From the NCBI GenBank assembly GCA_016196825.1, contig JACPWY010000019.1, forward strand, positions 22,644 through 86,643: a stretch of 64,000 bases of DNA. The letters are read 5' to 3'. Every line of letters starts with the position of its first letter. Positions within the stretch are counted from its first letter, which is position 1. Both the position numbers and the translations under genes were made by a program. The stretch is from Deltaproteobacteria bacterium (GTDB lineage Bacteria > Bdellovibrionota > FAC87 > UBA2466). The notes under the pieces were generated by a model. It was not told the DNA's origin and searched no databases. It saw only the letters and a list, made by a program, of their open reading frames with translations. Shown in pieces: positions 14,265 to 44,657 of this stretch.

Positions 14265-14266
14265 CG

Positions 14267-22405: not shown

Positions 22406-22492
22406 GTCGCGATCCTCAAAAAATTGTCCAGACTAAGGGGGCTCCGACTGGTGGAGGGTATGTCATAAGAGTAATATTACCTCTGAACATGC

Positions 22493-23683: not shown

Positions 23684-23765
23684 AGCATACCGTTTTTTAC
23701 GTGTAGACGCAATTATCGGTATGATATGAGCGCTTCGTTCAAGGCGCCGATTCAGTTCTAGAGCA

Positions 23766-24367: not shown

Positions 24368-24477
24368 CCCAAAAGAATAGCAAAAAAGCGTACGTATTTT
24401 CAATATTAAAACGTACGTATTCGATGACGTCTACAGGCGTTTTGACAAGACTCCAAAAACGTTGAGAATTTTGGAGT

Positions 24478-24969: not shown

Positions 24970-25651
24970 CGGCGGGGTGGACTCCACCTCGCGATTCCGC
25001 CCCTTGTTCTTTTCTGAGGTTTAGAAGAAAGTCGTCAATCAATTCCCCCACTTTCCGAGCGCCATCGACTGAAACCTGAAGGAGTCGCTCCAGTTCCGGG
25101 TCAGATCTCTCTGTGCCCTTTCTCTGAAGGAGTGAAAGGTGGGTTGAAAGCATTCGAAGGGGCTGTTTCAAATCATGGGAGGTAATCGATGCGAATTGTT
25201 CGAGCGCGCGGTTGGATCGGCTAAGCTGTTCCTCCAAAGCCCGTTGTTTTTCCAGAGAAATCAGGAGGCCCTTTTCGAGGCGAATTTTTTCAAGTGCAAT
25301 CTCAATGGTCGAGCGAATGGCGGTGTCACGCACTGGTTTCACGAGGTATCCGTAGGGAGCTGTATTCTGGGCGCGGAAGAGCGTTGCGTCGTCTGAGAAC
25401 GCTGTCAGATACACAATCGGGGTGTTGTTCGATTCTTTGATCTGGATCGCAGCCTCAATCCCATCCATTTCTCCTTTGAGCTTAATGTCCATCAAGATGA
25501 GATCCGGCACGGTCTCCGCCGCCTTCTTGATGGCCTCGGCACCGGAAAAGGCTATGCCAGCACATTCGTAGCCCAGCTGGACCAATTTGGTTTCTAGATT
25601 CATCGCCGCGACGGCTTCGTCTTCGACGACTAAGATGCGCGTTTTATTCAT
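24935..25651 (-). CDS. response-regulator receiver protein with C-terminal HisKA (DHp) segment but no ATPase domain
   Basis: [18 protein letters not shown]…[11 protein letters not shown] is a REC domain. [16 protein letters not shown] is an H-box. The ORF ends about 90 aa later with no N/G boxes. It is 4-bp coupled to the upstream kinase. Confidence 0.6.
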
Positions 25652-28185: not shown

Positions 28186-28200
28186 GACAAAGCTAATGAA

Positions 28201-29865
28201 TTACGCCGCTGGTCCCGAGCTCCTTTTCAGTTCCTCGATCTCCTTTTTAAGCTCAATCATCTTGAGCTCGCGTCCCACGGTGAGCTTTTGAAATCGCTCG
28301 AGTTCGGCCAGACGAACAAGCTCTCTGGTTCGTTGTTCCGCGACCTCTTTCTCGGCGCGTTTTTGGGCGGTCACGTCACGAGCAGCGGCGAAAACCCCCA
28401 ATACGTTTCCACGGACATCCTTATAAACGGAGGCGTTGTAAAGAACGTCGGTCAGCTTTCCATATTTGTGTCGAATCGTGAGCGGGTAATCAGATACGAA
28501 GCTTTTTGCAAATACCTGTTTGTAGCCCTCCCGCGCCTTCCCAGGCTCCGTGAAATAGTTCGAGAAGTCGGAGCCGATCAACTCCTGTCGCGAGGTGCCC
28601 GTGACTCTCATGGTCGCTTCATTAACGTCCATGATTTTGCCGTCAGGACTGATGGTCACGAGTGGATCTAAAGAGGCCTCAATCAAGCTTCGCGAATATT
28701 GTGACGCTTGTTTCTGCGCGGTCACGTCACGAGCAGCGGCGAATACGCCTGACACATTCGCGGTTCCATCCTTATAAACGGAGGCGTTGTAAAGAACGTC
28801 GCTCAGCTTTCCGTCTCTGTGCCGAATCGTGAGCGGATAGTCAGCGACAAACCCTTTGGCAAAGACTTGTTGATAACCTTCTCGTGCTTTCTCAGGCTCC
28901 GTGAAATAGTTCGAGAAGTCGGACCCGATCAATTCTTCTTGGGAAACACCGGTAACCTTGGTTGTGGCCTCGTTAACGTCCGTGATCTTACCATCGGCGC
29001 TAATGGTCACGAGTGGATCTAAGGAAGCCTCGATCAAGCTGCGGGCGTATTGCGACGCTTGTTTCTGCGCGGTCACGTCGCGAGCGGCGGCAAACACGCC
29101 CAGCACATTTCCGCGAACGTTCTTATAAACAGACGCATTGTAAAGAACATCGGTCAGCTTTCCGTCCTTGTGCCGAATCGTGAGGGGATAGTCGGAGACA
29201 AACCCTTGAGCGAATACCTGCTTATATCCCTCTCGCGCTTTCTCAGGCTCCGTGAAATAGTTCGAGAAGTCGGACCCGATCAATTCTTCTCGGGAAATAC
29301 CCGTAACCTTGGTTGTGGCCTCGTTAACGTCTGTGATCTTACCATCGGCGCTAATGGTCACGAGTGGATCTAAGGACGCCTCGATCAAGCTTCGGGCATA
29401 TTGAGCAGCTTGCTGCGAAGCCTCTTTCTGGGCCGTCACATCGCGTGTAATGGACGAGACACCCACGACGTCGCCTATTTTATTCTTAATTGGCGACACC
29501 GTCAGGGAGACGTCGATAATCACGCCATCTTTTTTAATGCGCTTCGTATCGTAATGCTCAGTTTTCTCACCTCGTTTAATCTTTTCTATGACGGGCGCCA
29601 ATTCGTTGGAATGGTCTTTCGGCACCAGGGTGTAAATTGATTGGCCGATCATCTCATCTGTTGTGAATCCGTAAATTCGTTCGGCGCCTTCGTTCCAGCT
29701 GGTGATCGTGCCGTCCAGATCCTTGCCTACGATCCCATCGTCGGCGGACTCGACAAGTGATGCGAGCCGGTCGCGATCATCCTCGAAACTGCTCGCCATC
29801 GATCCTTTTTCCTTCGAATACTTTCTGTATTGTGATTTTATCGGCACTTGGGTTTGCTCATGCAT
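28201..29865 (-). CDS. PAS-domain-only signalling protein with three near-identical tandem PAS repeats and C-terminal coiled coil
   Basis: An N-terminal PAS block is followed by three copies of a ~106-aa PAS unit (TAQKQASQYARSLIEASLDPLVTISADGKITDVNEAT…VFAAARDV). The tail is ELVRLAELERFQKL… with no output domain. Confidence 0.7.
   Translation of the reverse strand: MHEQTQVPIKSQYRKYSKEKGSMASSFEDDRDRLASLVESADDGIVGKDLDGTITSWNEGAERIYGFTTDEMIGQSIYTLVPKDHSNELAPVIEKIKRGEKTEHYDTKRIKKDGVIIDVSLTVSPIKNKIGDVVGVSSITRDVTAQKEASQQAAQYARSLIEASLDPLVTISADGKITDVNEATTKVTGISREELIGSDFSNYFTEPEKAREGYKQVFAQGFVSDYPLTIRHKDGKLTDVLYNASVYKNVRGNVLGVFAAARDVTAQKQASQYARSLIEASLDPLVTISADGKITDVNEATTKVTGVSQEELIGSDFSNYFTEPEKAREGYQQVFAKGFVADYPLTIRHRDGKLSDVLYNASVYKDGTANVSGVFAAARDVTAQKQASQYSRSLIEASLDPLVTISPDGKIMDVNEATMRVTGTSRQELIGSDFSNYFTEPGKAREGYKQVFAKSFVSDYPLTIRHKYGKLTDVLYNASVYKDVRGNVLGVFAAARDVTAQKRAEKEVAEQRTRELVRLAELERFQKLTVGRELKMIELKKEIEELKRSSGPAA
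28440..29400. repeat. three tandem ~318-bp near-identical repeats (each encoding one PAS domain)
   Basis: DNA blocks beginning gtcacgtcacgagcagcggcgaa… recur at about 28365, 28715 and 29065 with few substitutions. Protein repeats differ at about 10% of positions. Confidence 0.75.
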
Positions 29866-31048: not shown

Positions 31049-31442
31049 TGAGCGTTTTCATGTTTTCTCGCCCCAAGTAGGGCCCCTGCTTCAACTCCAA
31101 AAACTCCGTGTCTTCCAGAAAGTGAAAGGCGTGGCCGCCCCTTAAGAGGAGAAGCGAATCGCCTGGTCCCATTTCGAATTCCTTTAAGAGTGTGTCCGAG
31201 GTGTCATAGACGGAGGCGATCACTTTCCCCCGCTTGACCATGATGAACTCCTGAAACTCTTCAACTACGGCGGCCTTCCCTCTGTGGCGGTGAGGCTCCA
31301 CGCATCCCCCTTTTTTGAAAACGCCGATGCCCAACTGAATGGGCTCGCTCAGAGGTGTGAGGAAGCTCGTCTTCTCAGGGGAGTGCGTGGCTCCAATGAA
31401 AATGGCGATCATCTGGTCGCCTGATGTCAGAATCTCAAGCAT
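30972..31442 (-). CDS. WbuC-like cupin-fold protein
   Basis: MLEILTSGDQMIAIFIGATHSPEKTSF…GGCVEPHRHRG has a cupin His cluster. The start is ambiguous (ATGs at 31463 and 31442), and the upstream ORF region is the other-frame shadow of the methyltransferase. Confidence 0.45.
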   Translation of the reverse strand: MLEILTSGDQMIAIFIGATHSPEKTSFLTPLSEPIQLGIGVFKKGGCVEPHRHRGKAAVVEEFQEFIMVKRGKVIASVYDTSDTLLKEFEMGPGDSLLLLRGGHAFHFLEDTEFLELKQGPYLGRENMKTLINPRPVVEKPAVHQAVLGVESTTRN

Positions 31443-32181
31443 GGCCCACTCCTCGGCAAACATATAACAGATTGTAGTCCGTTGGCGAAACCGGCGCCTC
31501 TCGGTAGGCAGGGAGCATGTCAAGGCACTCCCATTCCGCGGCCCGGAGGTTCGCCAGGAATTCTCTCGGTGTTTGGTAATACATCGTGTGATTTTCAGAG
31601 GCCGAAAATCCATTGCGGCTGGAGAGGTCGATTCGAATCTCAAGTTTTTGTTGAATCCAATCCAGTTCAGCCACGGACTGACGGGTGTAAAGCGCTCCGT
31701 CGGACCCTGGGGCTGAGCGTTCGCGGTAGGAGGCGAACTGAAAAGGCACCGCCGAGCCGTTCCAAACGTCGAAGATGGCAATCCCTCCCGGCTTCAGACA
31801 AAGGCGCAGGCGCTTCAGTGCCGCCAAAAGGGGCTCCCCATGGGGCAGGTAGTTTAAGACAGAAAACAGAGACAGAACGAGATCGGTGGCCCCGTCGGGT
31901 GTGTGGTCCAGAAATGCGATGGGGAGCTCGGTTTTCTTGGCTCGCTCGCGAGCCAGAGCGAGCATGTCGGGGGAGCTGTCGACGCCGGTCACGGTCCAGC
32001 ATTGGCGTGCGAGCTGTTCGCAGTGTCGGCCGGTGCCGCAGCCGTAATCGAGTGCTGTCTTTCCGCCCGAGCGGCCATGGCGATCCCAGAGCGAAAGAAC
32101 GAGGTCGATCTCCTTTTCATAGTCCTTCCCGGCGTAGAAGGCGTCGTACAGGCTCGAGTACCGCTCGCCGAAGGGGGTCAT
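31435..32181 (-). CDS. class I SAM-dependent methyltransferase
   Basis: ALDYGCGTGRHCEQLARQCWTVTGVDSSPDMLALARERA is SAM motif I plus post-I. Confidence 0.7.
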   Translation of the reverse strand: MTPFGERYSSLYDAFYAGKDYEKEIDLVLSLWDRHGRSGGKTALDYGCGTGRHCEQLARQCWTVTGVDSSPDMLALARERAKKTELPIAFLDHTPDGATDLVLSLFSVLNYLPHGEPLLAALKRLRLCLKPGGIAIFDVWNGSAVPFQFASYRERSAPGSDGALYTRQSVAELDWIQQKLEIRIDLSSRNGFSASENHTMYYQTPREFLANLRAAEWECLDMLPAYREAPVSPTDYNLLYVCRGVGHA

Positions 32182-33311
32182 GGGGTGAGCACCCTCCGCA
32201 GCGTCGCTGCAATACGATCGATCTCCGATTCCGTCAGGTGGCTACTCGACGGCAGATAGAGTCCTTTGGCGCCGAGGTGTTCCGCGATCGGGAGCGACTG
32301 ACCGGTTTGGAAGATGGGCTGGGTGTGCATGGGCGAAAAGAAGGGCCGGGATTCGATGCCCCGCTCTTTCAGAAGGGCCATCGCGTCTGAGACGGTCCGC
32401 TTGGTGTAGCTTGGTCGCAAGACGATGCCGTACATCCAATAACAGTTGCGGGCCCACTCTCGCTCGACGGGGAGCTGGATGAGATCCTCGAGTGTGCGGA
32501 GCCGGTCGGAGTAGCGGCGAGCGTTTTGTCGTCGCATTTCGACCAGGCTCTCAAACCGCTCCGTTTGAGCGCAGCCGAGGGCTGCCTGGAGATTGGTCAT
32601 GCGATAATTGAAACCCACCTCTTCGTGGTGGTAGCGCCGCTCGCCCTTCAGGGGAAACGCGAGATTTTTGAGGGAGCGGCAGCGGTCTGCGAGTTCACGA
32701 CGGTTGGTGCAGACCATTCCCCCTTCTCCGGTCGAAATGATCTTGTTGGCGTAAAAGGAGTAGACCGTCACATCGGGGAGGGCGGCGAGCTTTTTGCCCT
32801 GGTAGAGGGCGCCGTGCCCTTCGGCCGCATCTTCCAGCCAGCTCAGGCCGTGTTGACGGCAAAACGAGGCGATCGGATCCAAATCACACGGGTGACCGTA
32901 GATCGTGACCGACATCACCGCTTTGGTGCGCGGGGTGAGGGCGGCCTTGAGTTGAGCGGGATCCATCGTCCAGGTGTCGGGATCGGAATCGATAAACACA
33001 GGAGTGGCGCCGCAGTACTGAATGGCGAGGGCGGAGGCCACCATAGTGAAGGACGGAAGGATTACCTCGTCGCCCCCTCCAATCCCCAAGGCCTTAAGTC
33101 CTAGGTGGAGACCGACGGTTCCGTTGCAGACGGCGATCCCCTCGCGAGCGCCAACCTTTTCGGAAAAGGTCTCCTCAAATCTCGGAATGAATTCGCCCGC
33201 GGAGGAGATCCAGCCGGTCGAGACGGCGCGAGTGACGTATTCGAGCTCGCGGGGGCCGAGGGTGGGCTCACAGACCGGGATGCGCTTCTGATCCATGCGA
33301 GGCTCTCCCAA
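32178..33311 (-). CDS. DegT/DnrJ/EryC1/StrS family sugar aminotransferase
   Basis: IPVCEPTLGPRELEYVTRAVSTGWISSAGEFIPRFEETF…AVCNGTVGLHLGLKALG is typical of the family. Confidence 0.8.
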   Translation of the reverse strand: MGEPRMDQKRIPVCEPTLGPRELEYVTRAVSTGWISSAGEFIPRFEETFSEKVGAREGIAVCNGTVGLHLGLKALGIGGGDEVILPSFTMVASALAIQYCGATPVFIDSDPDTWTMDPAQLKAALTPRTKAVMSVTIYGHPCDLDPIASFCRQHGLSWLEDAAEGHGALYQGKKLAALPDVTVYSFYANKIISTGEGGMVCTNRRELADRCRSLKNLAFPLKGERRYHHEEVGFNYRMTNLQAALGCAQTERFESLVEMRRQNARRYSDRLRTLEDLIQLPVEREWARNCYWMYGIVLRPSYTKRTVSDAMALLKERGIESRPFFSPMHTQPIFQTGQSLPIAEHLGAKGLYLPSSSHLTESEIDRIAATLRRVLTP

Positions 33312-34425
33312 ATAGCTGTGCCCTTGTCGACGATTTCACGCCCAGGGCGTTGGCGATGGCATTGACCACTGTGTGTTGAATCGCGGGTGTCATCTGGGGC
33401 CAAATGGGTAATGACAAAACCTCTTGCGCCGCCTGTTCGGCGATAGGGCACGAAATAGCGAGGTGCTGGTACACCGGCAATTGGTGCACCGGGGTGGGAT
33501 AATAGACGATCGTTGATACGCCGGCCTTTTTGAGGCTTTCGACTACCGCATTTCGCCGCCCGTCCCGAATTCGGATTGTGAACTGATGATAGACATGGCT
33601 TTCAGAATGAGGGGTGCATCCGACGCCCGGCATGTCGCTCAACAGATCTGTGTAAAGGCGAGCAGCCACATTGCGGGCGGCGTTCATCGCCTCGACGCGA
33701 GGGAGCTTGATGCGAAGAATGGCGGCCTGCAGTTCGTCGAGGCGCGAGTTGTACCCGAGTGTCTCATTACGATAGCGTTCGATTGAGCCATGGGTGCGAA
33801 GTTTTCGCGCCTGAAGCGCCAACTCGGGATCGGATGTGACGACCAGCCCCGCATCGCCGAAAGCCCCCAGGTTTTTCGTTGGAAAAAAGGAGAAGCACCC
33901 GACGGTGCCTAAAGAACCCAATCGTCGTCCATGGCGACGACCTCCGAAAGCCTGAGCCACATCTTCAATAATGGGCACATTGGCCTTCTGCCCAATCTCA
34001 ATGATGCGATCCATGTCGGCGCTCTGTCCGAAAAGATGAACCGGAAGGATCGCCTTGGTGCGATTCGTTATCAAAATCTTATCGGGATCGATGTCGAAAA
34101 ACTTGGGCCGAATGTCGGCGAAGACGGGGCGAGCCCCCACTAGGCTAATCGCTTCGGCGGTTCCGAAAAAAGTGAACGGGGTGGTGATCACCTCATCGCC
34201 GGGGCCAACGCCCAGGGCTCTGAGCGCGATCACAAGTGCATCGGTGCCCGAATTGAGGCCGACCGCATAGGGGACTTCCAAAAAATGAGCAACCTCCTGC
34301 TCGAAGCGCGCCCCCTCCTCACCGAGGATGAAATGGCCGCTCCTCACAACTCGTTCGAGGGCGAGCGAAATCTCGGGCCACAGCGCTTCAATTTCAGGTT
34401 TGAGGTCGAGGATCGGTATCATCAC
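33268..34425 (-). CDS. DegT/DnrJ/EryC1/StrS family sugar aminotransferase (second copy)
   Basis: MMIPILDLKPEIEAL…GLNSGTDALVIALRALGV. The downstream partner's start codon lies within its last 44 bp (33268-33311). Confidence 0.8.
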   Translation of the reverse strand: MMIPILDLKPEIEALWPEISLALERVVRSGHFILGEEGARFEQEVAHFLEVPYAVGLNSGTDALVIALRALGVGPGDEVITTPFTFFGTAEAISLVGARPVFADIRPKFFDIDPDKILITNRTKAILPVHLFGQSADMDRIIEIGQKANVPIIEDVAQAFGGRRHGRRLGSLGTVGCFSFFPTKNLGAFGDAGLVVTSDPELALQARKLRTHGSIERYRNETLGYNSRLDELQAAILRIKLPRVEAMNAARNVAARLYTDLLSDMPGVGCTPHSESHVYHQFTIRIRDGRRNAVVESLKKAGVSTIVYYPTPVHQLPVYQHLAISCPIAEQAAQEVLSLPIWPQMTPAIQHTVVNAIANALGVKSSTRAQLFGRASHGSEAHPGL

Positions 34426-34459: not shown

Positions 34460-34897
34460 TCAAGGTTTCAGGCGGGTGAAGCCCACGGTGATCTTCCCCC
34501 GGGCCACCACCCCGCATTGGGTTAGGTTTCGAATGGTGAGGTGGAGGATGAGCGCCCTTTCCCCCTCGATTCTCTGGGCCACAACGGTTTCAATTTCCAC
34601 CGAGTCTCCAGGATAGGACGGAGCGTGGTAACGCACATCAGCCCCGAGAAGGAGGGCTTGGCGGCCGGGAAAGACCCTCCCAATGAAATGGGACAAAAGG
34701 CCGTGGAGGATGCCACCGTGGATCACCGGTCCCTGAAAGCCAGCCTTTTGGGCAAATTCCTTGTCCGCATGAAGGGGGTTGGTGTCGCCAAAGAGCGCCA
34801 TGAACGATTGGTGGAGCTCCTCGCTGAGTGGGTATTCATGGCTGTGGCGATCGCCGAGATGCACCTGGTCAAAATGAAAATCGGGAGAGATCTCCAT
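34460..34897 (-). CDS. MaoC-like (R)-hydratase/dehydratase, hotdog fold
   Basis: FMALFGDTNPLHADKEFAQKAGFQGPVIHGGILHGLLS is the MaoC signature. Confidence 0.7.
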   Translation of the reverse strand: MEISPDFHFDQVHLGDRHSHEYPLSEELHQSFMALFGDTNPLHADKEFAQKAGFQGPVIHGGILHGLLSHFIGRVFPGRQALLLGADVRYHAPSYPGDSVEIETVVAQRIEGERALILHLTIRNLTQCGVVARGKITVGFTRLKP

Positions 34898-34950: not shown

Positions 34951-36063
34951 ATGGCAGTGGCTTTGGTGACCGGCTCCTCCGGGCTTGTGGGGAGCGAGAC
35001 CGTAAAATTCTTGGTTTCTCAGGGGCTGGAGGTTCATGGGCTCGACAACGACATGCGTTCCTATTTTTTTGGAGGCGAAGCCTCGACGCAATGGAACGCT
35101 GAGTGGCTGACGCATCATCTGAAACCCTTTCATCACCACTCGCTCGATATTCGCAATGAGGCGGAGGTCAACGCGCTCTTTGGGCGATTTGGTGGCGCCA
35201 TCGATCTCATTGTGCATGCCGCTGCCCAGCCGAGCCATGACTGGGCGGCGCGCGAGCCGCTCACCGATTTTTCTGTCAACGCAGTGGGGACCTTGGTTTT
35301 GCTGGAGGCCGCCCGCCGCCATTGCCCAGCCGCCACGTTTATTTTTATCTCAACGAATAAGGTCTATGGTGACCGTCCCAATTCTTTGCCGATTCTCGAG
35401 GGGGAATCTCGGTATGAAGTGGATCCCAAACATCCTTTCGCGCAATCCGGCATCGATGAGACGATGCCAATCGATCAGTCGAAGCACAGTCTCTTCGGGG
35501 TGAGCAAGATGGCGGCCGATCTCCTGGTGCAGGAATATGGCCGGTATTTTGGAATGAAGACCGGCGTTTTTCGTGGGGGCTGTCTGGCGGGGCCGGCCCA
35601 TTCTGGCGTCGAGCTCCATGGCTTTTTGCCTTACCTTGTTCGATGCGCAGTAACCGGGATCCCCTATCGCATTTTCGGATATCGAGGGAAGCAGGTTCGC
35701 GACAATATCCATTCCGCTGATCTGGTGAGCGCGTTCTGGCATTTTTATCGGCAGCCGGGTTGCGCAGCCGTCTACAATATCGGTGGCTCGCGCCACAGCC
35801 ACTGTTCGATCCTGGAAGTGATTCAGCTGATTCAGGAGATCGCGGGGCGCGAAATTTCTTACACGATCGAGGATGGGGCGCGGACTGGTGATCACATTTG
35901 GTGGATCAGCGATGTGCGTAAGTTTCAGCATCACTACCCGGGTTGGTCCTACCGTTATGATTTGCGGGGCATCCTCACCGAAATGGTTGAGGCCGCGCGG
36001 GAAAGATATCTCACTCCCCAACACTTCCGACAGAGTTTGGAAACTCCCCCTCTCAACGCATGA
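34951..36063 (+). CDS. NAD-dependent epimerase/dehydratase family protein
   Basis: [21 protein letters not shown] is a Rossmann motif. Extended SDR, 370 aa. Confidence 0.75.
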
Positions 36064-37928
36064 ACCTGGATCATCTGAAGGCTCTTCGGAATGCGAAACC
36101 GGAAGAGTATTGGTCTGAGTACCGCCGCATGGTGGGGTTGGCGCTGTCATTCTCCGATCTTTTTGCGCTCAAGCGGGAAGCCGACCGGGCAAAGGCAATC
36201 GTGGGGAGGGCGGACTGGCTCGCGTTACGATTGGCTCTGATCGGCGGAGCCAACTTTCGACCATTTTGTGATGGCGTGGAGGCGGCCCTTTTGGGTGAAG
36301 GGATTCGGGCGGAGATTTGGGTGGGGGAGATCGATCGCCAGGTTTGGGAGGTGAATGATCCGCAGAGCGAACTCGTCGGGTTTCGCCCTGATGTGGTGGC
36401 TTTTTTCCCGTCGGAAAACCTCCTTCGTTGGGAGGATGGTCTTAGGGTCGCGGAGTCAGTCAGTCGGGGGCGTGTCAATCAGGTCGTGGAGGAAACACTG
36501 GGGCTCTGCCAGCGCATCTTTGATCATTTGGGGGCGGAGGTTTTGCTTTTGAACTATCCGCTTTTTGGAGACTGTGATCTCGGGCCTTATCGAAATCGGC
36601 AGCTCGGTAGCCTTTGGGCTTTTCGTAAGATGGTGAATTTGGAATTGGGCTTGCGGGCACCGGCCTTCGTGCGGGTGTGCGATCTGGAATTTCTCAGCGC
36701 ACGCCTTGGCACCGACTTGAGCCGTGATGCCCGGGGGTGGTTGGAAAGTCGACAACCCTTTTCGCAAGAATTGATGTTTGGGGCGGCAAAAGAGCTCGCT
36801 CACATGATCTCACGTCTTCGACAGACGCCGAAGAAGGTCTTGGTGCTCGATCTCGACAACACGCTTTGGGGCGGGATCCTGGGAGAGGAGGGTGTGGAGG
36901 GGGTTGAACTGGGGCACAATTCGGCGCGGGGGGAGGCCTTCAAAGGGTTTCAGAGCTACGTGAAGACGCTGGCTCAGCGAGGAATCCTGCTCGTTGTGTG
37001 CAGCAAGAACGACGATTCGCTGGCGCGCGAAGCATTTGTGAATCACCCGGAGATGGTGCTGAAAATGGATGACCTGGCCGGGTTCTCAGTCAATTGGGGA
37101 CCAAAATCTGAGGCGATCGCTTCTATCGCCCGGCAGCTGGCGTTGGGGCTGGAATCGTTCGTTTTTGTCGACGATAATCCTGCGGAGATCGCCGAAGTGA
37201 ACCTAGCTCTGCCCGAGGTAGCCACGGTGGTACTGGGGGACGACCCAGTGGATTTTGTTCGTCGGCTCCAGCGGGGACGTCACTTTGAACCCCATTCGCT
37301 ACTGGAAGAAGATTTTGAACGCGGGCAACTCTACCATCAGCAAAGGCAGCGGAAGGATCTGAAAACTTCTGTTTCGGATCTGAAATTCTATCTGCGCTCC
37401 CTTGAAATGGTGGCGGAGGTCCAAGTGGCCGGGGCTTGCGATCTGCCGCGCGTGGCCCAGCTTATCGGTAAGAGCAATCAATTCAACCTCACCGCAAAGC
37501 GGAGGACTTTGGGAGAGATACAGACGCTTCTTAAAAGCGAAGGCTCCGCGGGGGTGACAGTGCGATTGCGGGATCGTTTCGGGGATCAGGGGCTCATCGC
37601 GGCGGTGCTACTGGTGGAGAGCGGCCAGGGCGCGGCGATCGATACGTGGGTGATGAGTTGCCGGGTGTTGGGGCGTCAGGTGGAAGAGCTGACGGTCAAT
37701 GCGTTGGTCGCTTTGGCTGAGCGTCGCGGCTGGAGATGGATTCGAGCGAACTATGTGGAGACTGCGAAAAACCGCCTTGTGAAGGAGCTTCTGCCCAATA
37801 TGGGATTTGTTGAAGGCGAATTGGATGTGCTTGGGTTTACCCCGCGATCGACATTTATAGTTGGGTCAAGCGGAGAATTCGATCGATCTCCGCGAGTGAA
37901 TTCGCAAACAGAAGAAATGTCGCGCTGA
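36060..37928 (+). CDS. FkbH-like HAD-superfamily subfamily IIIC protein
   Basis: [27 protein letters not shown] is the HAD-IIIC/FkbH motif with catalytic DxDxT. There are about 250-aa N-terminal and C-terminal extensions. Start overlaps the epimerase stop (ATGA). Confidence 0.7.
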
Positions 37929-39033
37929 CAAAGAGGAACGTGAGAAGGACTGCCACCGCATGGACAGTCCGGCTCCGCTGGTAGGCTCTCAGTCTTTCTC
38001 TGGGCAGACTCTTGAGACCCAGGCCGTAGAGATAGTTGAAAGTGACCCCGGCGGCATGGGTCAATCCGAATAGGAAGAAGTTCCAGCCGAGGCCGTGCCA
38101 GAGTCCAATGAGAGAAAAGACGACAGTGATTCCTAGGATGATCGCCCAATGGGCGGATTGTGGCCCGAGCCGATGGATGAGGGTTTTAGTGAGCGGCAAA
38201 AACACGATCGTCTGCATGTATTCGGACAGTGTAATGTGTTGTCGATTCCAGAAATCTTTTATATTGCGGGCGGCAAAGGGCTGGTTGAAATTTTCCTTCA
38301 CCCGAATGCCAAGAAGGCCGGCCGTGCCGATGGCGATATCGCAGAAGCCGGAGAAGCTGAGAACGATCTTCAGATAGGTGGCAATGCACGCTACAGCGAG
38401 ATCGATCGGCGGATGAATGGCGTTTTCGGAATAGACCTTCTGGAAGGAAATTTGATCCATGAGAGGGGCTAAGACGAGAAATTTTGCGAGCCCCACCAGA
38501 ACTCGGATAACGGCCTGCGTGGCTAGGCCCTGGGTCTGGGGAAGTGGGGACTGGAAGGTGGTGAGTGGACTGATGGGACCGACATTGAGAGTCGGAGCGA
38601 ACAGCGCGAACGAAATGTAGGCGGCAAAGGAGGGAAAGGTGGCCGTTCCGTTTCGAACCTCGAGCGCTGCGAAGCTGAGACGAAAGGCTAGAAAGGAGAT
38701 TCCCACGAGAAAAAGTCCGAGCGACTTGACCGTTGCCAAAAGGAAAAGTGGGAAAAGGAAAGCCAACCAAAAGGATCTGTCTTGGCGGTGCCCGAATCTC
38801 TTGAGAAGCCCGTAGTGAATCACGACAATGATGATGGAGAGAATGGTGAGATGATCGGCCTCGGTGGGTGAGATCTTCTGTGAGGCGCAGACGATGCGGA
38901 CAATGAAGCGGATCGAAATGAGGTTGAGCGCGGCAAAGAGTGATTCACCGGTAGGTGAGTGAAGCCGCTGCAACGTGCGGCCGGCTCCGACATAGAACAG
39001 CCAACCCACAAAAATGCGGGTCCACGAATACAC
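37855..39033 (-). CDS. MBOAT family membrane-bound O-acyltransferase (AlgI/DltB-like)
   Basis: Polytopic membrane protein. FWNRQHITLSEYMQT and GLWHGLGWNFFLFGLTHAAG resemble the conserved FWRRWH…/WHG histidine region of AlgI/DltB. The 3' end overlaps the FkbH gene convergently by 74 bp. Confidence 0.55.
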   Translation of the reverse strand: MYSWTRIFVGWLFYVGAGRTLQRLHSPTGESLFAALNLISIRFIVRIVCASQKISPTEADHLTILSIIIVVIHYGLLKRFGHRQDRSFWLAFLFPLFLLATVKSLGLFLVGISFLAFRLSFAALEVRNGTATFPSFAAYISFALFAPTLNVGPISPLTTFQSPLPQTQGLATQAVIRVLVGLAKFLVLAPLMDQISFQKVYSENAIHPPIDLAVACIATYLKIVLSFSGFCDIAIGTAGLLGIRVKENFNQPFAARNIKDFWNRQHITLSEYMQTIVFLPLTKTLIHRLGPQSAHWAIILGITVVFSLIGLWHGLGWNFFLFGLTHAAGVTFNYLYGLGLKSLPRERLRAYQRSRTVHAVAVLLTFLFVSATFLLFANSLAEIDRILRLTQL

Positions 39034-39141
39034 TAAAACCCTCCATAGGCGAGGGTGGGGTCAAAGACCTCTCGCGGGATGAGCGCAATGAGCCGGAGGC
39101 TGAGCAGGGTGAGCATCAGGAGCGTTCCCCAGAGGGCGAGC

Positions 39142-40374
39142 TCAGAGAGTCGAGCTTGGTGCTGTTCCATAGATCTCCGCCAGAGTGGGGGTGACAGCTC
39201 GGGTGAAGAGTCTAGCCCCGTTGATGTTGAAATGATTGACGTCGTAATAGAGGCCCCGAACCTCGTCTTCCGAAAGACTGGAGAAAAGATCGGCCGGCAC
39301 AACGCCTGCCACAAAGAGATTGGGAGCGGGAAAGCGCCTCCTCCAGTCTTGGCGCAACACGATTGTGTGATCCGCGCGATCGAGAAACCGAGGCATGTCC
39401 AAGAGCACGACCTTTGTCCCGTGGGTGAGCGCGAGGTCCACCGCCTTGGCGAAAAAATAGGCGTCGTAAGGGGGAAGCGGTCGGTTGAGCGAGGAGAAAT
39501 TGTTTTGTGTGGCGGGGGAAAGAATAGTCCCTGTCGCACCGGTCGAAATATTTTTTTCTTGGAAGGACGGGTCTTCAGGGAAAGTTCTTGCGCTAAGAAG
39601 AGCGCCCGTTGAGGAGATGGTGGGATCGGATGGGTGAGAGTGTCTAGAACCTATCTCATAAATAGTTTCTACTCGGCTGGTCAAAAAGCCCAGGCTCTTC
39701 GTCCTCCGCGCTCGGCTGCTCGACGTGCCCAGAGGGCACGCCTCCGCGGCCTCGCTTGTGCGTCCTTGATCCAGGGCTTTTTGACTCAGCCTCGCTACGA
39801 AACTATTTATGAGATAGGTTCTATTTCTCAGAAGGCCTAAGACATGCCGTGGAGCCCCTAGATAGGAGTAGGCCCAGAGTCTGAATTTCGAGGGAAGATC
39901 GAGGCCGTTGAGCTCCCCGATGTGTTCTCCCGCGATCCACCAGTAGAGCGAGTAGTAGTGGGGTTCCTTTCGGCCCGCATCGCCCTCGGGTGGATCGATG
40001 ACGACCGTGTGCACTCGGCGTCGTTGGAGGAGCTCTTTCAAAAGAAGATAGATCAAATCTTCCCCTCGCCAGTTTGCGCCAAGATTCAAGGTGACCAATT
40101 TTTTTCCAGGCACCAGGGTCTCGGCCAAGAGATCGGTGTTCACTGCGTTCCAGATGTAAGACGATCCCAAAACAAGGAGATCGATGTCGCCGGTTTCTTC
40201 GAATATTGAATGAGCCATGAACTGGTAGTGGCCGCCGTGGCTCGGTGCGGAATGAAACTTTTGCTCCGGTCGATAGCCCGGCAGGCTCGGAAGAGCCCAC
40301 GGCAGAACTAACAGGAATGCGAGCAGAGCGCAGAACAGCCAGCCCTGCATGCGAGTGGAAAAGGCTGGCTCCAT
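39142..40374 (-). CDS. DltD/AlgJ-like (SGNH-type) extracytoplasmic protein carrying an in-frame MITE-like insertion
   Basis: N-terminal signal/TM (WLFCALLAFLLVLPWALP). C-terminal DAYFFAKAVDLALTHGTKVVLLDMP…LYYDVNHFNINGARLF resembles DltD/AlgJ acyltransferase-partner proteins. Residues about 178-245 are encoded by repeat copy B (39645-39823) with no stop. Confidence 0.45.
   Translation of the reverse strand: MEPAFSTRMQGWLFCALLAFLLVLPWALPSLPGYRPEQKFHSAPSHGGHYQFMAHSIFEETGDIDLLVLGSSYIWNAVNTDLLAETLVPGKKLVTLNLGANWRGEDLIYLLLKELLQRRRVHTVVIDPPEGDAGRKEPHYYSLYWWIAGEHIGELNGLDLPSKFRLWAYSYLGAPRHVLGLLRNRTYLINSFVARLSQKALDQGRTSEAAEACPLGTSSSRARRTKSLGFLTSRVETIYEIGSRHSHPSDPTISSTGALLSARTFPEDPSFQEKNISTGATGTILSPATQNNFSSLNRPLPPYDAYFFAKAVDLALTHGTKVVLLDMPRFLDRADHTIVLRQDWRRRFPAPNLFVAGVVPADLFSSLSEDEVRGLYYDVNHFNINGARLFTRAVTPTLAEIYGTAPSSTL
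39645..39823. repeat. MITE-like palindromic repeat, copy B (full)
   Basis: Perfect 24-bp terminal inverted repeats (agaacctatctcataaatagtttc / gaaactatttatgagataggttct). Inner arms are tactcggctggtcaaaaagcccagg / ccagggctttttgactcagcctcg. Conserved core cttcgtcctccgcgctcggctgctcgacgtgcccagagggcacgcctccgcggcctcgcttgtgcgtcct. Confidence 0.7.
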
Positions 40375-40454
40375 GGAGTGAAGTGTACCCTACTGAGGAG
40401 CTCATGGTTAAGGACACCGCAATGTACTGGCTTGTGATCGAAGCCACCGTCACT

Positions 40455-40534
40455 TCAGTCGGCGCAGTTTGAATACTTTTTGGTATACCGATTTGTATTA
40501 AAGAATAGATTTTGGTATACCGAAAAGTATTCAA
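40455..40534 (+). promoter_or_regulatory. AT-rich putative promoter/operator with duplicated palindromic site TTGGTATACCGA
   Basis: gaatactttttGGTATACCGAtttgtattaaagaatagattttGGTATACCGAaaagtattc carries two copies of GGTATACC (self-complementary), flanked by inverted gaatactttt / aaaagtattc. It lies immediately upstream of the AAA_14 gene. Confidence 0.4.
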
Positions 40535-41677
40535 GTGGGGATTCCTTTGAAACGCTATCTGACAACTTGGTTGAAAACGGCACTGAAGGAAAAGATGGTT
40601 TTTGTGGGTGGGCCGCGCCAGGTCGGAAAGACGACTTTAGCATTTCAACTCCTGGGGAACGCGGATCCTGAGCAATCGGCCTATTTCAATTGGGATATTC
40701 ACGGGACAAAGACGCGGATTCTCAACCATGAATTGCCGGTGGATCAGAAACTCTTAGTGTTTGATGAGATTCACAAGTACCGACAATGGCGGAATTTTCT
40801 GAAAGGGCTTTTCGATCAATACAAGTCAAAAAAGGAGATTCTCGTTACCGGGTCTGCGCGACTGGATGTTTTTCGAAGGGGGGGCGACGCTCTCACTGGT
40901 CGGTACCACTATTATCGATTTCATCCCCTGTCGCTCTGTGAGATCAGTCAGCAGCCAAAATCGTCCGATCTTGATCATTTGCTTAAGTTTGGGGGATTTC
41001 CAGAGCCATTTCTCAAGGGAGAAGAGCGCGCTTGGAAGGTGTGGCAGAATGAACGCGTTACTAGAGTCGTTCAAGAGGACCTGATTTCCTTGGAGAGGGT
41101 GAACGAGCTCAGTCAACTCAGTCTCCTTGCGGAAATATTGCCTATCAGAGTCGGAAGTCTCCTCTCACTCAACAACCTTCGAACTGAGCTCAAGGTCTCT
41201 TACGAGGCTGTCGCAAGGTGGATAGAGATCTTCGATAATCTCTATTACTCCTTTCGCATTTCCCCCTTTGGGTTTGCCCCCCTGCGGACGGCCAAGAAGG
41301 AAAAGAAGCTTTACCTCTGGGACTGGTCTTCTGTTCCCAATGAGTCGGCAAGAGTGGAAAATTTTGTGGCCAGCCATCTGTTGAAATATTGTCATGCGAG
41401 ATATGATCACTTTGGAGAACGGTTGGAGCTACTCTTCTTACGCTCACCGATTGGCAAAGAGATCGATTTCCTCGTGTGCGATCGAAAAAAGCCGGTCTTC
41501 GCCGTGGAATGTAAGTCAGGGGATCGGGAGGTGAGCTCGTCGATTAAATACTTTGCCCCACGAATGCCCATCCCGCGCTTTTTTCAGGTCCATCTCGGGA
41601 AAAAGCATGTCGAGGTGAAGGATTATCGCACTGAGATTATCCCCATGACCCAGTTCGGGAAATGGCTGGGTGTCTAG
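40535..41677 (+). CDS. AAA_14/DUF4143 family ATP-binding protein
   Basis: Walker A GGPRQVGKTTLAFQLL and Walker B LLVFDEIHKYRQWRNFLKGLFD. 380 aa. Its stop abuts the ACP gene's GTG start. Confidence 0.65.
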   Translation: MGIPLKRYLTTWLKTALKEKMVFVGGPRQVGKTTLAFQLLGNADPEQSAYFNWDIHGTKTRILNHELPVDQKLLVFDEIHKYRQWRNFLKGLFDQYKSKKEILVTGSARLDVFRRGGDALTGRYHYYRFHPLSLCEISQQPKSSDLDHLLKFGGFPEPFLKGEERAWKVWQNERVTRVVQEDLISLERVNELSQLSLLAEILPIRVGSLLSLNNLRTELKVSYEAVARWIEIFDNLYYSFRISPFGFAPLRTAKKEKKLYLWDWSSVPNESARVENFVASHLLKYCHARYDHFGERLELLFLRSPIGKEIDFLVCDRKKPVFAVECKSGDREVSSSIKYFAPRMPIPRFFQVHLGKKHVEVKDYRTEIIPMTQFGKWLGV

Positions 41678-41929
41678 GTGGATGCAGGCACCGTGCTGTT
41701 GAGGCTCCAGACCATTTTTGACGACCTGCTTCTTCAGCCGGTCACGCTCACGCCAGCGCTCAGCGCCGATGAGGTCGAGGAATGGGATTCCCTGTTACAG
41801 GTGTCGATCGTGGCCGCGGCCGAAGAGAGATTTGGCATTCAGTTTCGCACGGGTGAAGTGGAGGCGACGCGGAATGTGGGTGATCTGGTCGCCTTGATCC
41901 AACGGCATCTTTCCCGTCAGGCAGGTTGA
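41678..41929 (+). CDS. acyl/peptidyl carrier protein (phosphopantetheine-binding)
   Basis: GTG start. …ADEVEEWDSLLQVSIVAAAEERFGIQF…VGDLVALIQ has the DSL Ser motif and four-helix ACP pattern. Confidence 0.65.
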   Translation: MDAGTVLLRLQTIFDDLLLQPVTLTPALSADEVEEWDSLLQVSIVAAAEERFGIQFRTGEVEATRNVGDLVALIQRHLSRQAG

Positions 41930-43383
41930 AGCGTGCCGGTCGGAATGGGGAGTTCTTCCTGGTGTTCGGACCTGAGTCCGAGCTCCGTGATCACGGCCGA
42001 TTCTTGGTAGGATTCGTAGTCGGTGTTGATGTCCCAGAGGTTGTGCTTCGCCCCTTGGTTTATCTTTTCAGCGGCGAGGAGCCCCATGAGGAGGCTGTGA
42101 TCTTGGTTATTGTATTTGAAGGAGCCATACCGACCGATGGGTGTGAGATTGTTGATCCCATTGATCCACTTTGCGATGTGGCTGACCAAGGTCTTGTATC
42201 CTCGTCGATAAACTGGGTAGCAGCGATTGAGCCGCTCGACATGGCCGCGCAGGATATTGGCCTTGCCGATGAGCCCCGTCTTGCGGAGCTCCGCCGAGGC
42301 CGTTGCGGCGAGTGAGTCATGCGAGTCGCTCCAGAGGGTGTCGTCTCTATTGCACCAATATTCGAGGGCCAAGATCGAATTCTCGGATCCTCGGTGGAGC
42401 TCGGGGACCCAGTTGCGAAAATTGGTGATACGACCGGTCTGGAGTTCGGGAGAGTGGACGTAGATCCAGTTGTCGGGGAAGAGGTTTTTCGAGTCGATCT
42501 CGAGATAAACTAGGATCGTGTTGCGAAATGAGAGGCCATCGACGGCGGCGCGGACGGAGTCGGGAACACCGGAAAGGGATTTCACCAAAAGTGTCAGGGG
42601 CATCGTGGAGACGACGTGATCATAAAGACGTTTTTCTCCGGTCGATAGCTCGACACCGGTGACATGGCCGTGGTCAGACATCAGTCTTTGAATCGGTGAG
42701 TTGAGGTAGACCTTGTTGCCCTTTCGCTCTATGAAGTCGGCCATCCGAGTGTAGAGTGCGCCGGAGCCCTCCTTGGGATAAGCGAAGCGATCGACGAGCG
42801 TTTTATGTTGGGTGGTTCCGATCTGAAAAGCGTTTTTGATCGCCTCAAGCAACGAAAGCTTCTTGATTCGTTGAGCCGCGAAATCGGCATCGAGATCTTC
42901 ACAGGAGATGCCCCAGAGCTTTTCGCTGTAGGTCTTGAAAAAAACCTCGAAGAGTCGCCTCCCAAAGCGCGAGGTGACCCATTGTTCAAAGCTCAAATCG
43001 TGCGACGCGGCCCTGGTCCGGAATTTTTCCGTGGCGTAGCTCGCGAGACAGCGCGTCGATTCCCATCCGCCGAGATTCGAAAGCGCGTCGAAAGGCTTGA
43101 GCGGGTAGTGGAAGAATCGCTTTCGGTAATAGATTCGCGTGAGGCGGTCGATCATCGCGTAGTCGCGGCCGATCACCTCGAGCCAGAGGCGGTTGATCCG
43201 GGCGTCGCAGGAGAAGAATCGGTGGGGGCCGAGATCCACGCGTTGTCCCCAGAGGTCGAACGAGCGTCCGAGGCCGCCGACAACGGGGGCGGCCTCAAAC
43301 ACATCGACCGAGTGGCCGGCCTTTGAGAGCTCGTAGGCAGCCGTGATACCAGCCGCGCCGGCTCCGATGACCGCAGTTCTCAT
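41917..43383 (-). CDS. FAD/NAD(P)-binding oxidoreductase (amine-oxidase / UDP-galactopyranose-mutase-like fold)
   Basis: MRTAVIGAGAAGITAAYELSKAGHSVDVFEAAPVVGG is a dinucleotide-binding GxGxxG motif plus the oxidase-family GG motif. Confidence 0.6.
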   Translation of the reverse strand: MRTAVIGAGAAGITAAYELSKAGHSVDVFEAAPVVGGLGRSFDLWGQRVDLGPHRFFSCDARINRLWLEVIGRDYAMIDRLTRIYYRKRFFHYPLKPFDALSNLGGWESTRCLASYATEKFRTRAASHDLSFEQWVTSRFGRRLFEVFFKTYSEKLWGISCEDLDADFAAQRIKKLSLLEAIKNAFQIGTTQHKTLVDRFAYPKEGSGALYTRMADFIERKGNKVYLNSPIQRLMSDHGHVTGVELSTGEKRLYDHVVSTMPLTLLVKSLSGVPDSVRAAVDGLSFRNTILVYLEIDSKNLFPDNWIYVHSPELQTGRITNFRNWVPELHRGSENSILALEYWCNRDDTLWSDSHDSLAATASAELRKTGLIGKANILRGHVERLNRCYPVYRRGYKTLVSHIAKWINGINNLTPIGRYGSFKYNNQDHSLLMGLLAAEKINQGAKHNLWDINTDYESYQESAVITELGLRSEHQEELPIPTGTLQPA

Positions 43384-43467: not shown

Positions 43468-43532
43468 TAGAACGTATTTCATAAATAGTTTCTACTCGGC
43501 TGGTCAAAAAGCCCAGGCTCTTCGTCCTCGCG
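43468..43532. repeat. MITE-like repeat, copy C (left half only, solo arm)
   Basis: tagaacgtatttcataaatagtttctactcggctggtcaaaaagcccaggctcttcgtcctcgcg matches the left 65 bp of copy B. No right arm is present. Confidence 0.6.
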
Positions 43533-43574
43533 CCTGGCCTGGGATTTCGGTGGGTTTCATGCTAAGACCAACCG

Positions 43575-44657
43575 ATGACGCAAGCACCAGAAACCCCTTC
43601 GGACGGCCGAGTTCTTCTGATCACGGGCGCGGCGGGTTTCATCGGCGCTAACGCGTGCCGCTATTTTTCCCAACGGGGCTGGCAGGTTGTGGCTCTTGAG
43701 TCGCCCAAAACGATCGGGTGGCGACTCAAAGGAATAGATGGCATTACGCGTCTCAAGGTGGACATCACGGATGCTGTGGCGGTGCGGGAAACACTGCTCC
43801 GTTGCCGGCCGCAATTTGTGATGAATTGCGCGGCCTACGGAAGCTACCCAAGCGATCAACGCCAGGATCTGATCTACCGCGTGAACTTTGATTCGGTTCG
43901 CGCGATGCTCGAGGTCTTGAAGGATTCCCCCGGGCTTCGAGGTTTTATTCAGGCCGGGTCATCCTCCGAATATGGATTCAACTGTGCGGCCCCCCGCGAG
44001 AATATGGCGTGTGAACCGGATAGCCACTTCTCCGTTTCGAAGTTGGGGGCGACTCAACTCGTTCAGTTTTATGGTCGTCGATTCAACGTGCCCGCGTGGT
44101 CATTGCGCTTGTCTTCGGTCTACGGACCACTCGAAGAATTCTCGCGCCTGATTCCTCAGATCTGTTGGAAGGCCTTGAAGGGGACACTGCCCGATCTTGC
44201 TTCCCCTGAGATCTCGCGGGACTTTGTTTACATCGACGATGTGCTTGAGGCCTTCGAGGCTGTGATGATGAAGGCGGACTCGTTGGCCTGCGGAGAGGTC
44301 TACAATATTGGCAGCGGGATCTGCACGACATTGGGGCATCTCGCCGAGACGGCCCGAGAAATATTTGGAATCACGGACCTTCCGCGCTTTGGACAGTTTG
44401 CCGACCGCGGGTGGGATCACCCCTCTTGGTATGCCAACCCGGAGAAGGGGGTGGCGTTCTTGGGGTGGAATGTGCGCGTACCGCTCGTCGACGGGTTGAG
44501 AAAAACCTACGCATGGATGGAGCAGAATCCGGAAACGGTTCTCGCGTCTGAGAAGTACAGCATTATTCAAAGAGGGAAAGGCAATGTCGGCTTTGGCAGA
44601 GACGCTGGCGCGCGACGCTCGGGAAATCCGGAAGCGCCTCCTCAAGCCTCACCTTGA
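43575..44657 (+). CDS. NAD-dependent epimerase/dehydratase family protein
   Basis: VLLITGAAGFIGANACRYF is a Rossmann motif. 360 aa extended SDR. Confidence 0.75.
   Translation: MTQAPETPSDGRVLLITGAAGFIGANACRYFSQRGWQVVALESPKTIGWRLKGIDGITRLKVDITDAVAVRETLLRCRPQFVMNCAAYGSYPSDQRQDLIYRVNFDSVRAMLEVLKDSPGLRGFIQAGSSSEYGFNCAAPRENMACEPDSHFSVSKLGATQLVQFYGRRFNVPAWSLRLSSVYGPLEEFSRLIPQICWKALKGTLPDLASPEISRDFVYIDDVLEAFEAVMMKADSLACGEVYNIGSGICTTLGHLAETAREIFGITDLPRFGQFADRGWDHPSWYANPEKGVAFLGWNVRVPLVDGLRKTYAWMEQNPETVLASEKYSIIQRGKGNVGFGRDAGARRSGNPEAPPQASP

Follow-up and report, generated by a model that had tools for sequence, protein, structure and literature searches.

A predicted Dlt-type O-acylation module with an FkbH-like acyl loader in a deltaproteobacterial contig and in Gram-negative soil bacteria

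We analysed a stretch of 64,000 nucleotides from a Deltaproteobacteria bacterium (assembly GCA_016196825.1, contig JACPWY010000019.1, positions 22,644 to 86,643 of the forward strand), referred to here as the window. It encodes an FkbH-like loader of 622 amino acids (36060..37928, + strand), a stand-alone acyl carrier protein (ACP) of 83 amino acids (41678..41929, +), a DltB-like membrane-bound O-acyltransferase (MBOAT) of 392 amino acids (37855..39033, -), a membrane-anchored SGNH-fold acyltransferase of 410 amino acids (39142..40374, -) and, between these last two, a putative DltX-like microprotein of 45 amino acids (39033..39170, -). A MaoC-type (R)-hydratase/dehydratase of 145 amino acids (34460..34897, -) is encoded nearby. 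An earlier note on this DNA, made from the sequence alone, had read four of these genes as a non-canonical Dlt-like module in which an FkbH-type enzyme replaces the adenylating ligase. The open reading frames (ORFs) it described are all present; it did not include the microprotein, a foreign AAA_14 ATPase gene or a repeat insertion in the SGNH gene. Taken together, our data make it probable that the locus specifies a trans-envelope O-acylation system of the Dlt type, with five components and a single tailoring enzyme, in which an FkbH-loaded ACP feeds the acyl relay.

The MBOAT scores 46.9 bits against PF03062 (cutoff 27) and retains the conserved W-H313-G motif. It aligns over its full length with the DltB equivalog TIGR04091 (157 bits over residues 38-379; the equivalog cutoff, 375, is not reached), and its only relevant sequence matches in the PDB are structures of DltB (6BUG, E = 1.6e-27; 8JEM, E = 2.5e-27). 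Both DltB histidines are aligned, one within FWNRQH266 and the other within W-H313-G. The C-terminus, ...DRILRLTQL, lacks a fused Tyr shuttle motif. A 2025 study of PatAB in the Journal of Biological Chemistry (PMC12148441) describes MBOATs of the acetyl-CoA type as longer proteins that use acyl-CoA and carry the Tyr motif fused on two extra C-terminal transmembrane (TM) helices; DltB moves D-Ala from DltC to the invariant Tyr in the C-terminal FxYxxF motif of DltX, which passes it to the Ser of DltD. The MBOAT in the window is DltB-sized and ends in ...LRLTQL, and we therefore looked for a separate carrier of the Tyr motif.

A candidate is encoded by the ORF between the SGNH and MBOAT genes. 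Its 45-residue product (MEQHQARLSELALWGTLLMLTLLSLRLIALIPREVFDPTLAYGGF) has a basic N-terminus, one TM helix and the C-terminal sequence LAYGGF-COOH. The ATG start codon is preceded, 4 nt upstream, by GGAG, and the TAG stop overlaps the GTG start of the MBOAT gene by one base (TAGTG). In each related locus with an SGNH gene, a homologue is encoded between it and the MBOAT gene. The homologues (n = 61, median length 43 amino acids) end in x-V-Y-x-G-F, with Tyr at position -4 and Phe at -1 in 61/61 and Val at -5 in 59/61, while none was found in 17 loci with distant MBOATs. The placing of the Tyr motif on a separate microprotein matches the DltB-DltX-DltD relay set out in PMC12148441, and the best reading of the sequence is that the microprotein would act as a DltX-like acyl shuttle carrying the Tyr motif.

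On the donor side, the FkbH-like protein passes TIGR01686 (FkbH) at 292.1 bits (cutoff 146.65) and TIGR01681 (HAD-IIIC) at 66.9 bits (cutoff 35.75); its homologue in a soil-metagenome locus, L002, reaches 299.9 bits with TIGR01686. The N-terminal two-thirds match PDB 3SLR, Bacteroides BF1531, which comprises an N-terminal part and the phosphatase domain (E = 7e-53). An AlphaFold2 model with a predicted local distance difference test (pLDDT) score of 83.6 shows an SGNH/flavodoxin-like FkbH_N domain, a HAD-IIIC phosphatase domain and a C-terminal domain of GNAT fold, and Foldseek searches with this model returned 3SLR, MDP-1 HAD phosphatases and GNAT acetyltransferases. We aligned 37 FkbH-like sequences, including the FkbH of a tetronate-type cluster (FabH-like, FkbH, ACP, E2-like acyltransferase) on a plasmid of Methylosinus OB3b, to which the window protein is ~40% identical over the HAD and C-terminal part and 30% over the full length. 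Invariant positions are D264/D266/T268, S315-K316-N317, K349, D371-D372, N473-Q-F-N476 and S533-C534-R-V536. The HAD motifs and the Cys of the SCRV motif are also conserved in ZmaN of the zwittermicin cluster, which was aligned separately, and SCRV is present in 46/46 module-linked FkbH homologues. By analogy with OzmB, the SCRV Cys is the putative acyl-enzyme site. Every characterised member of the FkbH family is reported to transfer glyceryl from 1,3-bisphosphoglycerate (1,3-BPG) to ACPs (PMC7489565), and by analogy the FkbH-like protein is predicted to convert 1,3-BPG to glyceryl-S-ACP. The FkbH-like and MBOAT genes converge and share 74 nt at their 3' ends (37855-37928). The C-terminal tail of the FkbH-like protein (~ the last 25 amino acids) outruns its homologues and is modelled with low confidence.

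The ACP passes PF00550 narrowly, at 22.3 bits against a cutoff of 20.8, and has its phosphopantetheine Ser in W36-D37-S38-L39. Its best match in the PDB is 2LML, a putative ACP (E = 2.4e-10). We read it best as a functional analogue of DltC, a reading by analogy with the Dlt system. No AMP-binding domain of the DltA type was detected in the 30 window proteins scanned, nor in the scanned flanking-gene representatives of related loci; the loader position in the module is taken by the FkbH-like enzyme, not by DltA. The profile searches that the earlier note had proposed as checks on its FkbH, ACP and MBOAT assignments thus all passed, and the ACP has its DSL site.

The SGNH protein has an N-terminal TM helix at about residues 8-30, a candidate nucleophile, S72, in a G-S-S motif, and a candidate general base, H381; its putative role is best read as that of a functional analogue of DltD. 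Word-indexed protein searches gave two relatives with the single sequence and three with a family profile, and the family emerged only in an exhaustive representative search. It comprises ~495 representative proteins, currently without annotation. A weak match, P0003 from Bradymonadaceae, was set aside as an ordinary MBOAT-partner pair without FkbH or ACP.

Conservation across genomes was assessed in a census of GTDB species genomes, which yielded 80 loci and is MBOAT-centred because the MBOAT served as bait. Of the GTDB loci, 53 have an MBOAT of 35% identity or more and no less than 4.2 kb of sequence upstream of it; in 42 of these the MBOAT is accompanied by FkbH, ACP and SGNH genes. Complete sets number 50, and 44 of these are colinear on one strand within 4.5 kb, in the order FkbH, ACP, SGNH, microprotein, MBOAT, with the ACP gene directly after the FkbH gene. 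The 17 loci whose MBOATs are more distant, mostly from Firmicutes, were without any partner gene. The hosts belong to Acidobacteriota, Verrucomicrobiota, Myxococcota (Polyangiales) and Proteobacteria (Thiotrichales, Alphaproteobacteria), and include the Acidobacteriota isolates Edaphobacter aggregans DSM 19364, E. modestus DSM 18101 and strain KBS 146. The closest homologue of the window SGNH protein is found in L002, where a single-strand operon reads FkbH(635)-ACP(82)-SGNH(356)-microprotein-MBOAT(360)-MaoC(143)-FabG-like SDR(241), the last a short-chain dehydrogenase/reductase (SDR), and adjoins PEP-CTERM and Wzy genes. Identities between the L002 and window proteins are 46, 61 (the ACP), 30, 44 and 37%. 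Since the same set forms a conserved operon in dozens of unrelated genomes, its grouping in the window is not due to chance. Co-occurrence, a further check named in the earlier note, therefore favours the proposed Dlt logic with an FkbH loader in place of the adenylating ligase, as do the DltB-like MBOAT and the separate Tyr-motif microprotein.

The same comparison bears on whether the genes work together at all. The MBOAT and SGNH protein might instead O-acetylate a polymer from acetyl-CoA, as in PatA/B or AlgI/J, with FkbH, ACP and MaoC serving the cytoplasmic N-acylation of amino sugars made by the adjacent DegT aminotransferases, a role put forward for the FkbH-domain gene Cj1302 of Campylobacter jejuni. 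In the window the MaoC gene runs in the same direction as two DegT genes and a methyltransferase gene, the ACP gene stands apart from that for FkbH, and NeuB/cytidylyltransferase and FliG-like genes occur elsewhere; in addition, an FkbH-ACP pair in Bradyrhizobium stands with a GNAT gene and no MBOAT, and Cj1302 lies in the flagellar glycosylation locus of C. jejuni (PMC7099621). However, the five genes form a tight colinear operon in 44 other genomes, where they have no DegT neighbours, the MBOAT has no fused Tyr motif and its sole solved relative is the carrier-protein-dependent DltB, and an operon of Sinorhizobium meliloti pSymB also links MBOAT, SGNH-like, ACP and FkbH-like genes. We regard two unrelated functions as very improbable.

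The MaoC protein scores 55.7 bits against PF01575 (cutoff 27) and contains the hydratase-2 motif G-D-x-N-P-x-H, here G-D-T-N-P-L-H. It is 37-58% identical to the products of MaoC genes that directly follow the MBOAT gene in 18/50 complete sets; in 17 of these sets MaoC is accompanied by a FabG-like SDR, and in one it stands alone. This co-occurrence with a FabG-like reductase supports the proposal, made from the window's gene order, that MaoC acts on the ACP-bound acyl group, and we predict that it dehydrates glyceryl-ACP to enol-pyruvoyl- or pyruvoyl-ACP. In the loading modules of trans-acyltransferase polyketide synthases (PKSs), such as those for FR901464 and bryostatin, FkbH together with a dehydratase and a ketoreductase reportedly leads from glyceryl- through pyruvoyl- to lactyl-ACP. 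A BiGMeC entry reads 'FkbH: 1,3-bpg + ACP -> D-lactate-ACP' (PMC7901079), and glycerate esters are known on an exopolysaccharide, gellan (Kuo et al. 1986, as cited in PMC4432689). In eight loci a small VOC/Glyoxalase_4 protein is encoded directly after the MBOAT (e.g. L045:11200-11616). VOC genes are also found near FkbH-ACP in S. meliloti (L087:4429-4896), Paroceanicella (L090:9112-9579) and Bradyrhizobium (L092:4511-4945). By analogy with methylmalonyl-CoA epimerase, this protein could be an acyl-ACP epimerase.

Building on the observed domain identities, conserved residues, fold and gene linkage, we propose the following mechanism, in which each chemical step, the substrate, the topology, the acyl group and the acceptor are predicted by homology. 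In the cytoplasm, the FkbH-like enzyme would take 1,3-BPG and its HAD domain (D264/D266) would remove the 3-phosphate. The glyceryl group would be held on Cys534 of the GNAT-like domain and passed to the phosphopantetheine arm on Ser38 of the ACP. MaoC may then dehydrate glyceryl-ACP to pyruvoyl-ACP; where a FabG-like reductase is also encoded, as in 17 related operons, lactyl-ACP would result. The acyl-ACP would dock on the cytoplasmic face of the MBOAT, whose His313 would move the acyl group across the membrane to the Tyr of the microprotein's LAYGGF tail, and this tail would deliver it to Ser72 of the membrane-anchored periplasmic SGNH protein. The SGNH protein would finally esterify a hydroxyl of an extracytoplasmic glycan, most likely the product of the neighbouring sugar genes, an exopolysaccharide or O-antigen-like polymer. 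Our confidence in the exact acyl group and in a polysaccharide acceptor, both assigned by analogy, is lower than that in the architecture of the relay.

The choice of acceptor follows the genetic context. The related loci are exopolysaccharide loci, with GT1/GT4, GT2, Wzy_C, Bac_transf, AT3, PEP-CTERM and sigma-54 regulator genes as recurrent neighbours. The relay might alternatively act as proposed on a membrane lipid or glycolipid headgroup, on lipid A or the lipopolysaccharide core, or on a secreted or PEP-CTERM-sorted protein, given that Dlt itself transfers its acyl group directly to a lipid-anchored polymer, that a PEP-CTERM protein gene adjoins the L002 operon and that the FkbH-ACP pair of Paroceanicella lies beside the lipid-modification genes mprF and acvB. 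Such acceptors seem distinctly unlikely to us: genes for glycosyltransferases, Wzy-like polymerases, priming sugar transferases and nucleotide-sugar enzymes recur beside the module, and the characterised bacterial MBOAT/SGNH pairs all acylate glycopolymers (PMC12148441).

Several observations weigh against the Dlt-type relay with a glycerate-derived acyl group. The putative shuttle motif starts with an aliphatic residue and not with the Phe of FxYxxF, and the window version, LAYGGF, departs from the family consensus xVYxGF in having A in place of V at -5. The sequence matches of the ACP in the PDB do not include DltC, and by sequence the ACP does not appear DltC-like. Of the DltD/AlgJ-like partner named in the earlier note, the DltD-like fold stands, but the protein matches no DltD, AlgJ or PatB sequence family, and the Asp of the canonical DxxH motif is not conserved among its relatives. 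The window has MaoC without a FabG-like reductase, so the final acyl group could be glyceryl, pyruvoyl or lactyl; lactyl would be formed here only if a reductase acted in trans. About eight related loci have SGNH-microprotein-MBOAT, or at least MBOAT and microprotein (L034), with no FkbH or ACP gene nearby. Finally, in L063, from the deltaproteobacterial metagenome-assembled genome RIFOXYA12_FULL_61_11, SGNH-microprotein-MBOAT occurs with an ACP and two B12-binding radical-SAM enzymes (features at 7106-8554, 10969-12672 and ~12552 (-)), and no FkbH was detected in that locus. L063 suggests other acyl chemistry on the same relay, and together with the loader-less loci it implies that the loader is exchangeable and not obligatory in cis.

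The donor pair, for its part, also occurs apart from the MBOAT. Long-form FkbH-ACP pairs are accompanied by GNAT and VOC genes in Bradyrhizobium sp. CSS354 (L092), and by genes for a methyltransferase, a VOC protein and a 439-aa hypothetical protein, close to mprF and acvB, on plasmid pD4M1C of Paroceanicella profunda (L090). The FkbH-ACP donor pair thus seems to serve several kinds of transferase. On the strength of these variant loci, the transfer trio and the FkbH-ACP pair look like two modules that are usually combined.

Given this variety, the FkbH-like enzyme might feed the same relay with an acyl group that does not come from glycerate, for example from another acyl-phosphate or phospho-acid; the modification would then be something other than glyceroyl, pyruvoyl or lactyl. 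Its subfamily is only 26% identical to the characterised ZmaN and carries an extra N-terminal SGNH-like domain, the tailoring genes that accompany FkbH-ACP in related loci vary (VOC/glyoxalase-like, methyltransferase, GNAT), and L063 uses B12-radical-SAM enzymes with no FkbH. Nevertheless, the SCRV Cys and every HAD phosphatase motif are kept without variation, and the pair of MaoC and ketoreductase suits a route from glyceryl through pyruvoyl to lactyl. An FkbH of the same long form (~40% identity, HAD + C-terminal) also belongs to a tetronate 'glycerate utilisation' cluster, a type that requires glyceryl-ACP (PMC7489565). A non-glycerate acyl group therefore appears unlikely.

The copy in the window is itself unusual, and this too tells against a working relay here. 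Its gene order is rearranged: the FkbH gene is convergent with that for the MBOAT, and the ACP gene lies behind an AAA_14/DUF4143 ATPase gene (40535..41677, +). A palindromic repeat element of ~180 nt (39645..39823, no strand assigned) interrupts the SGNH gene. The repeat is in frame and stop-free, encodes amino acids ~184-243, matches its own inverse at 73% identity and has further copies in the window at 56697-56875, 43468-43533 and 58623-58692, which makes at least four in all. The ~60-aa segment it encodes is absent from all SGNH homologues and is modelled with pLDDT <50. The element looks like a MITE/REP-like sequence tolerated in coding sequence and is no functional part of the system. 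With the rearrangement and the 60-aa repeat-derived insertion in the SGNH protein, this copy could be impaired. All ORFs are nonetheless full length and keep their invariant residues despite the rearrangement.

Whether the copy is a decaying, non-functional remnant was weighed on these data. The scrambled gene order, the ATPase gene inserted before that for the ACP, the repeat in the SGNH gene, the 74-nt overlap of the FkbH and MBOAT genes and the A for V exchange in the shuttle motif would fit decay. Against it, all six ORFs have their full length and none has lost a catalytic or invariant residue, the repeat is in frame, stop-free and in a loop region of variable length, and the translational coupling of microprotein and MBOAT has been preserved. 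We consider a remnant quite unlikely.

The AAA_14 ATPase was rejected as a component, as no homologue is found in any of 85 related loci; with no counterpart there, it appears to be an insertion that splits the module. Its stop at 41677 abuts the ACP start at 41678, and a second AAA_14 ATPase gene lies in the window at 22493-23683 (-). On the other side of the ACP, an FAD oxidoreductase gene (41917..43383, -) converges on the ACP gene and overlaps its stop codon; its product belongs to the PRK07208 family (NCBIfam NF005548, 538 bits). Homologues ~27% identical are encoded just upstream of FkbH in loci L039 and L007, and a link to the module is possible; as a component the oxidoreductase was dismissed, since a homologue upstream of FkbH in only 2-3 loci is too sparse.

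Among characterised systems, the closest parallel is Dlt (DltA, DltB, DltC, DltD, DltX), which D-alanylates teichoic acids in Gram-positive bacteria. Shared features are a small carrier protein as acyl donor, a role predicted here, and a membrane-anchored transferase of SGNH fold. In both systems the MBOAT is of the DltB type, measures ~390 aa, has the same His residues and lacks a fused shuttle, and a Tyr-containing hexapeptide forms the C-terminus of a single-TM microprotein encoded on its own. Unlike Dlt, the module has no DltA and uses an FkbH-type HAD/GNAT loader, and in place of D-alanine it is predicted to transfer a hydroxy or keto acid derived from glycerate. Its hosts are Gram-negative (diderm) and its genes stand in an exopolysaccharide/O-antigen context; none of the Acidobacteriota, Verrucomicrobiota, Myxococcota or Proteobacteria is known to make teichoic acids. 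The SGNH protein and ACP appear to fall outside the DltD and DltC sequence families, and the motif is aliphatic-V-Y-x-G-F, not FxYxxF.

With PatA/PatB, AlgI/AlgJ/AlgX and WssH/WssI the module has in common an MBOAT with an extracytoplasmic SGNH protein, a Tyr shuttle, a Gram-negative host and a glycopolymer acceptor, the last predicted here; in contrast to PatA/PatB-type systems, it places the Tyr motif on a microprotein of its own and includes ACP and loader genes in the operon. The loader resembles FkbH, OzmB, ZmaN and Mad7/Mad14 in passing TIGR01686, in its invariant HAD motifs and SCRV Cys, and in having a dedicated stand-alone ACP. It differs from them in an extra N-terminal domain of ~250 aa, in the lack of genes for methoxymalonyl-ACP oxidation and methylation, and in its predicted user, a membrane acyl relay and not a PKS, a non-ribosomal peptide synthetase (NRPS) or a FabH-like enzyme. 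The lactyl-ACP modules said to combine FkbH with a dehydratase and a ketoreductase are paralleled by the MaoC and FabG-like SDR of 17/50 related operons, but here these are a free-standing hot-dog MaoC and a classical SDR, and the window has no reductase.

A variant of the module is found in S. meliloti pSymB (L087, CP140883.1 1050782-1055816), where genes for an MBOAT, a 409-aa TM protein, an ACP and an FkbH-like protein (39% identical) form one operon. There, however, the shuttle is fused: the MBOAT, of 522 aa, ends in FLYQGF, and a separate microprotein is lacking. A TM helix and the motifs G-G-S-T and D-P-G-H are present in the 409-aa protein, which is not detectably homologous to the window SGNH family. 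This protein is annotated as 'TonB-dependent receptor' and looks like a misannotated SGNH-type partner; a VOC gene lies beside the operon.

The module lies among sugar and amino-sugar genes, in keeping with the nucleotide-sugar/aminosugar setting first assigned to it: two DegT aminotransferases (32178..33311 and 33268..34425, both -), two extended SDRs (34951..36063 and 43575..44657, both +), a GT2 glycosyltransferase and a methyltransferase (31435..32181, -). The extended SDR at 34951..36063 is translationally coupled to the FkbH gene, and its homologue in L063 lies among glycosyltransferase and sugar genes. It was considered as the missing ketoreductase and rejected, as it scores as a nucleotide-sugar epimerase/dehydratase and is not conserved with the module. 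A separate pathway of the nonulosonic-acid type is encoded ~20 kb upstream (10629-12398, 12391-13599, 13596-14411 and 14267-15376, all -), where NeuB (nonulosonic acid synthase) is fused to a cytidylyltransferase and accompanied by a DegT aminotransferase, a GT2 and an iron-dependent alcohol dehydrogenase; this pathway and the module are separated by DNA that includes several genes for PAS histidine kinases (18369-29865). Beside the sugar genes, 45004-47748 (-) encodes a product of 914 amino acids, probably secreted or located at the surface, in which Ig-like domains of the ASH/HYDIN type occur together with DUF5122 beta-propeller repeats.

Outside Dlt, MBOAT/SGNH pathways are stated to operate without a carrier protein and without a DltX-like microprotein (PMC12148441). 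Our literature search found no publication on the combination of FkbH, ACP, MBOAT and SGNH, in agreement with the earlier note's view that it had not been characterised, no paper on a DltX-like microprotein outside Dlt and nothing on FkbH with O-antigen. The co-occurrence of FkbH and MBOAT in suomilide/aeruginosin NRPS clusters was discounted, as these are two unrelated steps there and not this system. On balance, we lean towards the view that the module is the first carrier-protein-dependent MBOAT/SGNH pathway outside Dlt: a widespread five-gene system of Gram-negative soil phyla that would draw its acyl group straight from 1,3-BPG, an intermediate of glycolysis, without ATP-dependent adenylation, tailor it optionally to pyruvoyl or lactyl, pass it through a DltX-like Tyr relay and place glyceroyl, lactyl or pyruvoyl esters on a periplasmic exopolysaccharide.

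If this is true, the FkbH-ACP pair would be a portable 'C3-acid donor' for MBOAT/SGNH, GNAT and FabH-like enzymes, and the module would provide a genetic and enzymatic route to hydroxy-acid or keto-acid esters on exopolysaccharides. It would also give a putative function to two unannotated families, the SGNH-type proteins and the ~43-aa, mostly uncalled microprotein. Cultivable carriers are available in Edaphobacter aggregans, E. modestus and Acidobacteriaceae KBS 146, with S. meliloti for the variant with the fused motif. The system bears on the exopolysaccharides of abundant soil Acidobacteriota and Verrucomicrobiota, where acyl groups control gelling, charge and degradability. If confirmed, it would extend the Dlt mechanism beyond teichoic acids and D-alanine, with the same relay at work in diderm bacteria and coupled to a completely different loader.

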